DNA from: an uncultured Treponema sp.
GTDB taxonomy: Bacteria; Spirochaetota; Spirochaetia; Treponematales; Treponemataceae
DNA length: 64,000 bases
Direction: 5' to 3'
NCBI GenBank assembly: GCA_946625725.1
Contig: CAMOTL010000003.1
Span: 733 to 64,732 of the forward strand
Made by a program: the position numbers and the translations under genes. The notes beneath the pieces are model-generated. The model was not told the origin of the DNA. It did not search any database and was given only the letters and a program-made list of their open reading frames with translations. This document shows positions 38,536-43,355 of the stretch, piece after piece (the stretch's first letter is position 1; every line of letters begins with the position of its first letter).

Positions 38536-39189
38536 ATGGAAGACGATATTCTTACTATAGAAGAAGTGGCAAAATATCTCAGGGTGTCTGAACGCACAGT
38601 TTACGACTGGGCTCAGAAAGGGGAAATTCCATCTGGAAAGATCGGAACTGTCTGGAGATTCAAGAAATCAGAAATTGAAAAATGGGTTAACGAACGTCTT
38701 TCTTCAAATCAGAAAAAAGAAGAATCAAATCCTGCAGTTCTGGTTAAAAACATTCTCGCTCCTGAGAGAATCGTATTTATTGATCATACAACAAAACGCG
38801 ATGCAATCGTTGAACTTGCAAACAATCTGAGTACAGCTCCCCAGGTAAAATACAAGGATGAACTGGTAAGCGAAATCCTCAAGCGCGAAGAACTGATGTC
38901 TACAGCAATCGGTCGTGGAATTGCAATTCCTCACGTAAGGCTTTCATCGGTTACTGACCTTGTAATGAGCGTTGGTATCTGCCGCAACGACATCATTGAC
39001 TTCCAGACAATCGATGAAATCCCGGTTCGCATTCTTATTATGATTGCTGCAGCTTATAACCAGCACACATATTATCTTCAGACCCTGAGTTTCTTCAGTT
39101 CAAAACTCAAGGAAAAACAGCTCCGCGATGCATTGCTCGCCGCTAAATCTTCTGAAGAAGCATACGAACTTTTAACAAAAGACAACTAA
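38536..39189 (+). CDS. HTH_17 (excisionase-type) DNA-binding domain fused to PTS EIIA (Ntr/Fru type)
   Basis: LTIEEVAKYLRVSERTVYDWAQKGEIP...WRF; REELMSTAIGRGIAIPH (phospho-His). Confidence 0.9.
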   Translation: MEDDILTIEEVAKYLRVSERTVYDWAQKGEIPSGKIGTVWRFKKSEIEKWVNERLSSNQKKEESNPAVLVKNILAPERIVFIDHTTKRDAIVELANNLSTAPQVKYKDELVSEILKREELMSTAIGRGIAIPHVRLSSVTDLVMSVGICRNDIIDFQTIDEIPVRILIMIAAAYNQHTYYLQTLSFFSSKLKEKQLRDALLAAKSSEEAYELLTKDN

Positions 39190-39319
39190 GGGAATCTCTA
39201 AAAATTGCAATTTTTAGAGATAACTTTGAAAATCCGATGTTTTAAGTCGTGATATTACAACGACTTAAAACTCGCGGGCATATCTAGAAAGTCGCTTTAG
39301 CGAATTTCTAGATATGCCC
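39190..39319. repeat. 130-bp MITE/REP-like element with three hairpins and imperfect terminal inverted repeats
   Basis: Perfect 26-bp palindrome 39195-39220; 12-bp arms 39239-50/39260-71; 15-bp arms 39276-90/39305-19; both ends read TAAGGG(A/C)AT(C/A)TCTA(A/G)AAA. Confidence 0.75.
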
Positions 39320-40483
39320 TTAATCATACAATTCCACAGGAATCCACTTGCTTCTGTCCTGCATGTTTGCGCTTATCATGCCCCATGTAAGGTCTTTTGC
39401 AGTGGTTTCTCCTGTCAGATATTTTTTACCGTCTAGTTCAAAATACTGACCCTGTTTTCCTTCCAGATAAACTCCTGCCATCGCATGGCTGTATTCAACC
39501 GAAATGTACATAACGCTGTCCATATTCATGTTTTTGAATAATGTCATTAAAAGCATTGAACGGCTGTCACAGTCGCTTCCCAGTCCTGCAAGCACTCCCG
39601 GTATGTTTGTAAAATCTGCCTTATCCGGCGTTGCCGAAGCGCGCTCGTAGCCGAATCCCTGTGTCCAGGTTAAAAGAGCCTGAGCGACTGTAAGTTCGTC
39701 GGCTGTTGAATTAAACAGGGCTGCAGAAATGTCAAAAGCGGCCTTTTTAACCCGGCCCATTGCGTCTTTTGCTATAAGGCGGTAAAAGCGCTGCCACGCT
39801 TCTTTCCACATGTTTGTTTCTGCAAAGAGTTTGAATACGGCAAATTCCCGGTCTACCACAAACTGATTTGCCTGGCTGTCGTCCTTGTCGAGCTGAGTCT
39901 GGATTTTTTGTCCTGCGATGTTGAGTGTAATGGACTGGGGAGTTGTTTTAGGGAATGCGAAGGTTGTGATAAGGCCTGCTTCCCGCCTGCTTCCCCGGTC
40001 AATCATAATTGAATCCAGTACCGAAAGCAGAAACTGTTCAAGATTGTAAAATTTATCTTCCGGGCAGTAGCTTATAACGCAGAGGTAGTCTGTCGCCGAC
40101 GGCAGGGGAATACAGACTGCCCAGCCTTCCATTTTCTGTCCAAGTACATTCTGAGGAACGCTGATTCTGCTCACACAGCAGTCCTGGTTCCGCCAGCGTA
40201 CTGGGGAAACTTCTCCCGTTGCCGAGATTTTTTTCTGTGTTGAATTCAGGCAGTCTTCGCTGCTTTTGCCGGAATCTGACGGCCATACGCGGATTACTGT
40301 CTGCACCGGAACCATGGTGTGTTCAAATAAAACGGAGCGTTCGTCCTGTGAACAGTCTGCGATGGAAAAACCTTCCGGAAAGTCAATGGAGTATCCGTAA
40401 ATATCGCTTGAAATAACTTCCCCGCTGAGGGGCATAAAAAGCGATACTGCAATAAATAAAAGTCCTGTAAGTTTATTCTTCAT
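39320..40483 (-). CDS. Exported protein with C-terminal transglutaminase-like domain
   Basis: Signal peptide; SDCDSRS...HAMAGV...GETT (putative Cys-His-acid triad); AAGGA SD. Confidence 0.65.
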   Translation of the reverse strand: MKNKLTGLLFIAVSLFMPLSGEVISSDIYGYSIDFPEGFSIADCSQDERSVLFEHTMVPVQTVIRVWPSDSGKSSEDCLNSTQKKISATGEVSPVRWRNQDCCVSRISVPQNVLGQKMEGWAVCIPLPSATDYLCVISYCPEDKFYNLEQFLLSVLDSIMIDRGSRREAGLITTFAFPKTTPQSITLNIAGQKIQTQLDKDDSQANQFVVDREFAVFKLFAETNMWKEAWQRFYRLIAKDAMGRVKKAAFDISAALFNSTADELTVAQALLTWTQGFGYERASATPDKADFTNIPGVLAGLGSDCDSRSMLLMTLFKNMNMDSVMYISVEYSHAMAGVYLEGKQGQYFELDGKKYLTGETTAKDLTWGMISANMQDRSKWIPVELYD

Positions 40484-41900: not shown

Positions 41901-43355
41901 ATGTCAGAAATGGCAGAGGCAATCCGTGAACTCATGCAGGAAAAAGGAGTTTCGGAAGATTCTATCAAGCAGACTGTGGAAAGCGCCATCAAGGCAGCTT
42001 ATAAAAAAACATTTGGTACAGCAGATAACTGTGTTGTAAAATTTGCAGACGATTTGTCAGACGTTTCTGTTTATTCAAGAAAGACAATCGTAGACGGCGT
42101 TTATGACCCTGTAACCGAAATTGAACTGGAAGAAGCTCTCAAAATGAGCGATGAATGCGAAGAAGGCGACGAAATCGACATTCTTGTAGATCCTAAAGAT
42201 TTTGAACGTTCAGCTGTTTCAACAGGTAAGCAGGCTGCTCACCAGGGCCTGAACGAAAGCTTTAAGGACAATCTTTACAACGAATACAAGGATAAGATTG
42301 GAGAAGTTATCATCGGTTATTATCAGCGTGAACACAACGGCAACATCTATCTCGACCTGGGAAAGGTTGAAGGTATCCTGCCTGTTAAGTTCCAGAGCCC
42401 GAGGGAAGAATATCACAAGAACGACCGTATCAAGGCTGTTATCGTTGATATCAAAAAGACAAATTCAGGACTCCAGCTCGTATTGAGCCGTTCAGATCCA
42501 AGACTCGTACAGTCAATTGTAAGCCTTGAAGTTCCTGAAATTGAAGATAAAACAATTTCAATTCATAAAATCGTACGCGAAGCAGGTTACAGAACCAAGA
42601 TTGCCGTGTACTCAGATAAAGAAGATGTAGATCCTGTAGGAGCATGTGTTGGTCTTAAGGGTGTTCGTATCCAGAACGTTATCCGCGAACTGGAAGGCGA
42701 AAAAATCGACGTTCTTAAATATGATCCTGATCCTGTTGAATTCATCAAAAATGCTCTTTCTCCGGCAGAAGTTGAAAAAGTTCTCATTACTGACGAAGAA
42801 AAACGTACAGCTCTTGCAATCGTTAACGAAAGCCAGTTCTCCCTTGCCATCGGTAAACAGGGACAGAACGTACGCCTCGCAAACCGTCTGTGCGACTGGT
42901 CAATCGATGTTAAGACTGAAGAACAGGCTGCAGAAATGGATTTGAGCGAATTTACTTCACGCCGTGCCGCTGAAGAACTGTTCAATACATCTGACAACAC
43001 ATCCGCTTCCGGCGAAGAAGAAATTTCAACAATCAGCGATCTTCCTGGTGTTGACGCTGACGTTGCTGCAAAACTTAAGGCTGCAAACCTTGATGATATC
43101 CAGGCATTCGTAGATGCTTACGATGACGGAAGCCTTTCTGTAGAAGGCGTTACTCAGGAACAGCTCGATGCAGTTAACAAAATTATCAGAGATGTAGTAG
43201 AATTCGTTGAAGAAGACGAAGAAGCTGCTGAATCTGATGCTCCTGCCGAAGAAGAAGCCGACGATGAAGAATATCATTGTCCGGAATGTGGAGCAAAGAT
43301 TACACTGGACATGACAAAGTGTCCTAATTGTGGTGTAGAATTCGAATTTGAATAA
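41901..43355 (+). CDS. nusA: Transcription factor NusA with C-terminal extension and zinc ribbon
   Basis: S1/KH motifs (REAGYRTKIAV, GACVGLKGVRI, AIGKQGQNVRLA); C-terminal CPEC...CPNC; GGAGG SD. Confidence 0.96.
   Translation: MSEMAEAIRELMQEKGVSEDSIKQTVESAIKAAYKKTFGTADNCVVKFADDLSDVSVYSRKTIVDGVYDPVTEIELEEALKMSDECEEGDEIDILVDPKDFERSAVSTGKQAAHQGLNESFKDNLYNEYKDKIGEVIIGYYQREHNGNIYLDLGKVEGILPVKFQSPREEYHKNDRIKAVIVDIKKTNSGLQLVLSRSDPRLVQSIVSLEVPEIEDKTISIHKIVREAGYRTKIAVYSDKEDVDPVGACVGLKGVRIQNVIRELEGEKIDVLKYDPDPVEFIKNALSPAEVEKVLITDEEKRTALAIVNESQFSLAIGKQGQNVRLANRLCDWSIDVKTEEQAAEMDLSEFTSRRAAEELFNTSDNTSASGEEEISTISDLPGVDADVAAKLKAANLDDIQAFVDAYDDGSLSVEGVTQEQLDAVNKIIRDVVEFVEEDEEAAESDAPAEEEADDEEYHCPECGAKITLDMTKCPNCGVEFEFE

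Follow-up and report, generated by a model that had tools for sequence, protein, structure and literature searches.

What places a series of three hairpins exactly between the stop codons of two convergent genes in an uncultured Treponema? The window, the 64,000-nucleotide stretch of DNA analysed here, contains an element of 130 bp at 39190..39319 (+ strand, GGG...CCC) without coding capacity. It begins directly after the TAA (39187-39189, + strand) of the left gene, for which the ORF list gives an HTH_17-PTS_EIIA_2 protein of 217 aa at 38536..39189 on the + strand (Pfam PF12728, 2e-19, and PF00359, 8.3e-30). It ends directly before the TTA (that is, TAA on the - strand, 39320-39322) of the right gene, a 387-aa reading frame of the ORF list at 39320..40483 on the - strand with no Pfam match. 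The fit between two convergent stops described in the original prediction, starting after the TAA at 39189 and ending before 39320, is therefore exact. We propose that the element is very probably a copy of a non-autonomous DNA transposon (MITE) whose family extends across Treponema and the wider order; a transposase acting in trans would move it, and it would have inserted neutrally with a 4-bp T-W-W-A duplication. The assignment is made because of the empty sites (three in number), the multiple copies, the terminal inverted repeats and the target-site duplications, and it agrees with the non-autonomous mobile element that had been suspected from the outset.

As to the surroundings, the left neighbour (38536-39189) has an unusual small-regulator architecture, an excisionase/MerR-like HTH_17 domain fused to a PTS EIIA type-2 domain. 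The window also encodes, at 41901-43355, a NusA carrying a C-terminal zinc-ribbon domain (Zn_ribbon_3 / UPF0547 matches).

Hairpins of the window copy and the empty site

Hairpin 1 is a perfect 28-bp palindrome, ATCTCTAAAAATTG/CAATTTTTAGAGAT, at 39194..39221 (+ strand), and the perfect 26-bp palindrome reported earlier lies within it. It is followed by a conserved core at 39225..39275 (+ strand), consisting of the linker TTTGAAAATCCGATG, hairpin 2 with 12-nt perfect arms (39239-39250 / 39260-39271) and a 9-nt loop, and then TCGC. Hairpin 3 occupies the last 44 nt, 39276..39319 (+ strand), and its 21-nt arms (39276-39296 / 39299-39319) are 95% complementary. The left terminal inverted repeat, GGGAATCTCTAAAAATTG (39190..39207, + strand), doubles as the 5' arm of hairpin 1, and 14 of its 18 positions agree with the right end when the latter is reverse-complemented; the right terminal inverted repeat (39302-39319, + strand) is the 3' arm of hairpin 3. 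Read inward, the ends TAAGGGAATCTCTAAAAA and TAAGGGCATATCTAGAAA of the window copy are identical at 15 of 18 positions. The statements of the original prediction on the sequence hold throughout, including the 12-bp-arm and 44-nt hairpins in series, the identity of 15 of 18 end positions and the relatedness of hairpins 1 and 3.

The three-hairpin fold is far beyond chance. For the + strand RNA, an MFE of -63.6 kcal/mol was obtained against -22.8 +/- 3.5 in 200 dinucleotide shuffles (z -11.8), and the opposite strand of the element gave a z of -10.7. A GC-rich stem followed by a T-tract is present on neither strand of 39190-39319, the stems being AT-rich as had been noted before, and no sigma-70-like promoter was found inside the element.

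Comparison of orthologous loci, which had been suggested as a check, revealed the site without the element in three relatives: two MAGs, L049 and L050, whose neighbour gene shares 87-88% amino acid identity, and the metagenome contig L156, with 92-94% nucleotide identity. The last was the only genuine hit of a metagenome pattern scan whose pattern was too short, the other 118 of 119 matches being chance. In the empty sites nothing separates the two genes, and the stop codon of one overlaps that of the other (CTAA, TTAG or CTAG). The sequence reads ..gataaCTAAtcata.. in L049 and L156 (..aaCTAAtc..) and ..gacaaCTAGtcata.. in L050 (..aaCTAGtc..), and the filled site in the window reads ..gacaaCTAA[GGGAAT...ATGCCC]TTAAtcata... 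Of the two copies of the 4-bp target-site duplication, the left one, CTAA (39186..39189), contains the stop of the HTH_17-PTS_EIIA_2 gene; the right copy, TTAA (39320..39323), has one mismatch to it. This C-to-T difference changes the stop of the minus-strand gene, which is TAG in the empty-site relatives, to TAA in the window. The C-termini of both proteins, ...LLTKDN* for the HTH_17-PTS_EIIA_2 protein and ...WIPVELYD* for the 387-aa protein, are identical in the window and in the empty-site relatives. Evidently, filled and empty sites demonstrate that the element is mobile.

These observations bear on the explanation that a locus-specific bidirectional terminator evolved in place between the convergent genes, for which the location between two convergent stops and the strong hairpins speak. 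Against it, the same site is empty in three relatives, the element is multi-copy in the host and in many other genomes, and its AT-rich stems are without T-tracts. Because the orthologous site is empty and both protein ends are unchanged, a terminator evolved in place is refuted, and we assign it practically no probability.

Copies, target duplications and stop codons

The host genome (2.4 Mb, 111 contigs, GC 43%) belongs to a Treponema whose nearest named relatives are rumen MAGs. BLAST and nhmmer found in it four full-length copies with 82-87% identity, namely the window copy on contig C3 and those on C21, C36 and C19. In addition, there are a half copy on C7, a copy on C10 cut by the contig end, and solo hairpins with the family ends on C1, C9, C2 and C40. 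A single copy conserved at this locus in all relatives, the outcome named beforehand as speaking for a plain terminator region, is thus contradicted by four full copies in one genome and by the empty locus in three relatives.

A covariance model, R1, was built from the four copies of the host genome; its best match is the window element, at 147 bits. In 24 genomes of the same genus R1 detects from 0 to >80 copies per genome, and matches were found in other families of the order as well. In a wider sample of the order, 44 of 151 genomes contain the family, and 18 of 62 genera are represented; genomes of the T. denticola-group are among them, as are T. primitia-like and T. caldarium-like ones. 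The distribution is patchy and multi-copy. The 15-nt terminus GGGAAYCTCTAAAAA occurs 167, 84 and 104 times in three relatives vs 0-1 times for the reversed control, which corresponds to an 84-167-fold enrichment. Family members have a length of 108-142 bp, which, like the 130 bp of the window copy, lies within the ~50-800 bp expected of a MITE. Clear members of ~142 bp with the same ends are found in T. denticola-group genomes, where they are flanked by the 4-bp duplications TGAA, AAAA, TATA, ACTT and ATAC, and a T. primitia-like genome has the same termini with the duplication TATA. Genome G002 contains about ten near-identical copies together with two longer ones, L092 (G002:C2:398351-398693, 343 bp) and L093 (G002:C2:625500-625793, 294 bp), which carry extra DNA within hairpin 2 and retain a target duplication.

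The insert of L092 and L093, ~170-220 bp nested in hairpin 2, is itself built of other small hairpin repeats (TCATTGCCG...CGGCAATGA and GTCATTTTCGGGC..GCCCGAAAATGAC), which are also present in the host genome (C82 near 600 and C104 near 1810). Solo palindromes of 36-44 bp, which correspond to two terminal repeats head to head, were observed in G039 and G035 (L094-L104) and in the host genome (C9:42290, C40:11098, C2:9149 and C10:59-102). Some are flanked by a 4-bp duplication (ATAA, TTTA), many are not, and such palindromes could represent either minimal elements or what recombination has left behind. The host genome holds, moreover, a second repeat family with GGGGCTGTCC ends, flanked as AAAA|GGGG...CCCC|TTTT (C17:34037, C5:54463(-), C51:14216/14346, C14:45752, C13:25015(-) and C11:15554), and solo hairpins of this second family at C1:29052, C8:8551 and 8750, and C56:11150.

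For the analysis of the target, copies with flanks were taken from G002, G009, G010, G012, G014, G019, G024, G033 and G039, with the boundaries fixed at GGG...CCC. A perfect 4-bp direct repeat was found in 36 of 50 distinct copies (37 of 54 when the host genome's own copies are added), and moving the right boundary by 1-3 nt as a control left such a repeat in 0-6 of 50 copies. The consensus of the target is T-W-W-A, with T at position 1 in 29/37 and A at position 4 in 32/37; TATA (11), TTAA (6), TAAA (6) and TTTA (3) are the commonest duplications. The outer 18 nt of the terminal inverted repeats match at 12.9 positions on average over the 54 copies. A 3-bp TAA or 2-bp TA duplication fits the window copy alone and is ruled out by copies with GTAT, AGAT, ATGA, TGTA and AACA. 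A MITE derived from IS630/Tc1-mariner, for which a TA duplication is expected, is ruled out by the 4-bp duplications GTAT, AGAT, ATGA and AACA.

The stop codon of a neighbour falls within the duplication in 13 of 54 copies, and one copy of G012, L048, also lies exactly between two convergent stops. Altogether, the copies are adjoined by 59 gene ends vs 26 gene starts. Gene starts are found 15 times on the hairpin 1 side and 11 times on the hairpin 3 side, gene ends 26 and 33 times, respectively; the orientation relative to the neighbouring genes is symmetric and random. The original prediction of TAA/TTA stop codons as the target needs correcting in two respects: 4 bp are duplicated rather than 3, and what is targeted is a loose T-W-W-A tetranucleotide and not stop codons as such. 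Adjacency to stop codons arises because TAA fits T-W-W-A targets (TTAA, TAAA, CTAA, ATAA) and because insertion just after a stop is harmless. Target preference together with purifying selection would be enough to produce the pattern, and recognition of stop codons would be needless.

Another explanation considered is a cluster of REP/BIME-type palindromes mobilised by a RAYT (Y1 HUH) transposase, or a palindrome-associated element derived from IS200/IS605, the former having been offered in the original prediction. The element is indeed a series of palindromes, and solo 36-44-bp hairpins, many of them without a flanking duplication, are common in the host, T. primitia-like and T. caldarium-like genomes. 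Nevertheless, the full elements have true terminal inverted repeats and 4-bp duplications of variable sequence, and Y1 transposition makes none, nor do REPs leave any. The Y1/RAYT domain PF01797 is absent from five copy-bearing genomes (the host genome G000, G002, G010, G012 and G033) and present in three copy-free ones (G001, G003 and G011); Y1/RAYT genes do not track the family. This explanation is very improbable.

Under the MITE assignment, the events at the window locus can be pictured as follows. A transposase supplied in trans would recognise terminal inverted repeats of the GGGAAYCTCTAAAAA type, make cuts staggered by 4 nt at a T-W-W-A tetranucleotide and insert the element there; when the staggered cuts were repaired, the 4 bp would be duplicated. 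At this locus the target would have been the CTAA in which the stops of the two convergent genes overlapped, and duplication would have given each gene its own stop. The insertion would be neutral for both proteins because the duplication regenerates both stops, and could persist for that reason. The striking feature of the locus is simply explained as a transposon footprint, and insertion into two overlapping convergent stops would make a clean textbook case of a neutral insertion.

Covariation and the relation to TD-1 and TD-2

The maintenance of the hairpins was analysed in a model-guided alignment of 62 forward copies. Paired cells amount to 94% vs 82% in shuffles, double-sided changes occur in 36 of 46 pairs vs 21 in shuffles, and the cells with double-sided changes number 308 vs 79; for each of the three measures, 0/500 shuffles were as high. 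Helix 2 of the test, which is hairpin 1, has 96.6% of its cells paired and five pairs with double-sided changes; compensatory changes were found in 13/16 pairs of helix 3 (hairpin 2) and in 14/14 pairs of helix 4 (hairpin 3). When partners were slid as a control, pairing fell to 34-53%, and a structure-blind MAFFT alignment still gave 17/20 compensatory pairs. The hairpins are maintained across the family.

Such covariation would also be expected if the family were primarily a structured RNA, whether a cis-regulator like TD-1/TD-2, a small RNA, or a 3'-end stabiliser or terminator, with selection on the RNA fold and mobility just the means of spread. In its favour are the compensatory covariation, which is very strong in each of the three helices, the core TGCGATG-HP2-CTCG, which is kept across subfamilies with different termini and is common to Rfam TD-1, the enrichment at gene 3' ends (59 ends vs 26 starts) and the overall preponderance of G.U over A.C (98 v 55). 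The last figure is made up of 17/17 for HP1, 24/20 for HP2 and 57/18 for HP3; the counts are balanced in HP1 and HP2, and the excess is confined to HP3 in an alignment fitted by an RNA model. As a test of strand, the comparison of G.U with A.C thus shows no robust asymmetry. Moreover, the orientation of copies relative to genes is symmetric, both strands fold equally well, a terminator-like T-tract is missing, and palindrome arms can co-vary via intra-strand correction without selection. Taken together, these points make a primarily structured RNA improbable. Because no RNA strand is singled out and the arms of a palindrome can co-vary by intra-strand correction, the structure reads as a property of the mobile DNA, with room left for an added RNA role. 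The hairpins of the MITE may matter at the DNA level, in transposase binding or in single-strand or cruciform intermediates, or they may be kept by intra-palindrome correction. Any effect on the neighbours, as an insulator between convergent genes or as a 3'-end stabiliser, would be a by-product.

The candidate RNAs TD-1 and TD-2, reported in 2007 from T. denticola only, with modular stems and unknown function, were not described as mobile (Weinberg et al., PMC1950547); the usual configuration of TD-1 is a 5' regulatory position to genes (PMC1950547). On the opposite strand, the Rfam model of TD-1 (RF03155) scores 24 bits with the window copy, 29 bits with the C36 copy and 46 bits with the best T. 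denticola-group member; these, like every score in the family, are below the gathering score of 64.5 bits. The alignments of TD-1 and of the family have CGAGUUU-stem-AAACAUCGCA in common, and the motif TGCGATGTTT-stem-AAACTCG of the family core is found in TD-1 instances too. Conversely, R1 matches TD-1 loci weakly (E about 0.002); each hairpin aligns with its counterpart, and AAUGCGAUGUUUU...AAAACUCG is conserved. Genuine TD-1 copies, with scores of up to 136 bits, are abundant in a sister genus and present in some genomes of the window's genus; those of the T. denticola-group (L114-L124) lie directly before start codons, where their 3' end supplies the GGAG RBS. At the same loci, L114-L124, the left flank repeats 8-17 nt of the 3' end (AAAGTTTTTATAGGAG) as a direct repeat, a pattern not seen at L125 from the window's genus. 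A match of the C21 and C36 copies (L009 1017-1103 and L010 1039-1125) to Listeria rli61, with 26-31 bits against a GA of 50, shares AUUGCG.UG followed by a hairpin and was set aside as probably chance or shared hairpin shape.

The family resembles TD-1/TD-2 in its Treponema hosts, three-hairpin layout, multiple copies, modular or variable stems and covariation. It differs from TD-1 in that the terminal hairpins of the latter are GATAAACAG.. and AAAAACTTTTT.., and in that TD-1 is 5' regulatory and supplies an RBS whereas the MITE family shows no preferred orientation and is found more often at the 3' ends of genes. In our reading, the window element is not a TD-1 member and is probably a relative within one modular superfamily. 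This modularity is visible in several subfamilies. The core is common to variants with other ends (L265, L271 and L272), GGGAAYCTCT ends are common to T. primitia-like and T. caldarium-like copies with a different core, and the termini GGGAAYCTCT, GGGGCTGTCC, ACCTGTTCG and the GATAAACAG of TD-1 are exchanged among subfamilies sharing the core.

Some of this evidence goes against a plain MITE. The window duplication is imperfect by one mismatch (CTAA/TTAA), and hairpin 2 and the core are better conserved across subfamilies than the interior of a passive MITE should be, with termini swapped between subfamilies. A conserved core with swapped termini hints at constraint beyond transposition. The three-hairpin unit might then be more than a passive MITE, namely a mobile, selectable structured module (an RNA or ssDNA binding site, or an insulator or stabiliser) picked up by different transposases, which we regard as rather unlikely. 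If it were so, a single mobile superfamily extending over the order would include the orphan Rfam motifs TD-1 and TD-2. The likeness suggests that TD-1/TD-2, unexplained since 2007, are in the same mobile superfamily as the window element, and this would change how they are to be studied.

The mobilising enzyme and comparison with known elements

For the MITE, the enzyme acting in trans was sought in the host genome and its relatives, mostly draft MAGs; two complete genomes were included and are also without a partner. A fuzzy terminal-repeat search of the host genome, G000, returned short elements and chance matches and no autonomous element with GGGAAYCTCTAAAAA ends, and its multi-copy ORFs are flagellin, sigma factor and the like, with no multi-copy transposase among them. 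No inverted pair of terminal repeats at IS distance was found in G002, G035 and G039, or among the matches listed for G010, G012 and G033, and no cognate element was found in phages, plasmids and viral contigs. In G002, orphan terminal-repeat matches have IS3- and IS21-type genes close by, the ends of which are unrelated.

Among the DDE transposase families known for duplications of ~4 bp, PF01609, PF13586, PF13546 and PF05598 are all absent from copy-bearing G002, G014 (bar one weak match) and G033. PF01609 loci have no matching ends, as is the case for the PF05598 loci of T. primitia, G010 and G012, and PF13546 is absent in every genome tested. PF13586, present in G035 only, belongs to an IS with a 6-bp duplication and ends that are merely loosely similar. 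The T. caldarium-like G035 has 18 identical copies of a 1649-bp IS (L126-L135) that encodes a 499-aa transposase (DUF772 + DDE_Tnp_1_2) and has the ends GGGCTTCCTGAAAAAC; it is a lead towards the IS5 group, but 6 bp of its target are duplicated.

Members of the IS5 group typically make 4-bp duplications and have ends that begin with G, and IS5 itself makes a 4-bp duplication at YTAR (ISfinder). In G010 an IS5-group element of ~1.77 kb (L109 571-2337) has DUF772 + DDE_Tnp_1 in split ORFs, and both of its ends start with GGGGCYGTCC and form hairpins. Its GGGGCTGTCC ends are shared with the sister three-hairpin variant L272 and with the second repeat family of the host genome. Among the 19 genomes tested, DUF772 transposases are found only in MITE-bearing ones (G010, G012 and G039) and in 0/6 copy-free genomes. 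These results point to a DDE transposase, for which the IS5 group would be the most likely source; the IS5-group attribution itself is tentative, with a probability well short of even. The duplication length fits the group, the target is broader than YTAR, and the search for copies beside RAYT or IS5-like transposases, proposed in the original prediction, yielded RAYT genes that do not track the family and no IS5-group element with the exact ends among the genomes searched.

The family was not described in the papers searched, and the kind of element is already known. A large census of 2024 only counts many MITEs in Treponema (PMC11602168). The present analysis defines a Treponema-wide MITE family by its termini, its 4-bp T-W-W-A target, its three-hairpin plan and a covariance model. 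Its copies break MAG assemblies, and they can help to tell strains of rumen and oral treponemes apart. The insertion itself is ordinary; what merits follow-up is how strictly three hairpins are kept, how ends and core are exchanged as modules, and how the family is linked to TD-1/TD-2.

Among known systems, REP/BIME sequences with their RAYT are likewise short palindromic units, sometimes solo, between convergent genes, whereas the Treponema elements possess terminal inverted repeats, duplicate their target and show no association with Y1 transposases. Like the IS5 group, the family duplicates 4 bp, has ends that begin with G and uses an AT-rich tetranucleotide as target (the CTAA of the window fits YTAR), and congeners hold IS5-group elements with GGG(G)-initiated hairpin ends. 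In contrast to that group, TATA and TAAA are common among the targets, and several copy-rich genomes are without a detectable IS5-type gene. From the bacterial MITEs known as Correia/NEMIS in Neisseria, RUP in S. pneumoniae, ERIC/IRU in enterobacteria and Nezha in cyanobacteria, the family differs in that its terminal repeats form the outer arms of a set of three separate hairpins and in that its partner IS was not found. Correia, RUP, ERIC and Nezha are of IS630 type, with a TA duplication or none known, unlike the 4-bp T-W-W-A of the Treponema family. Common to all of these bacterial MITEs and the present family are a length of ~100-150 bp, the absence of coding sequence, terminal inverted repeats, a target duplication, tens of intergenic copies in a patchy distribution and extensive self-complementarity.
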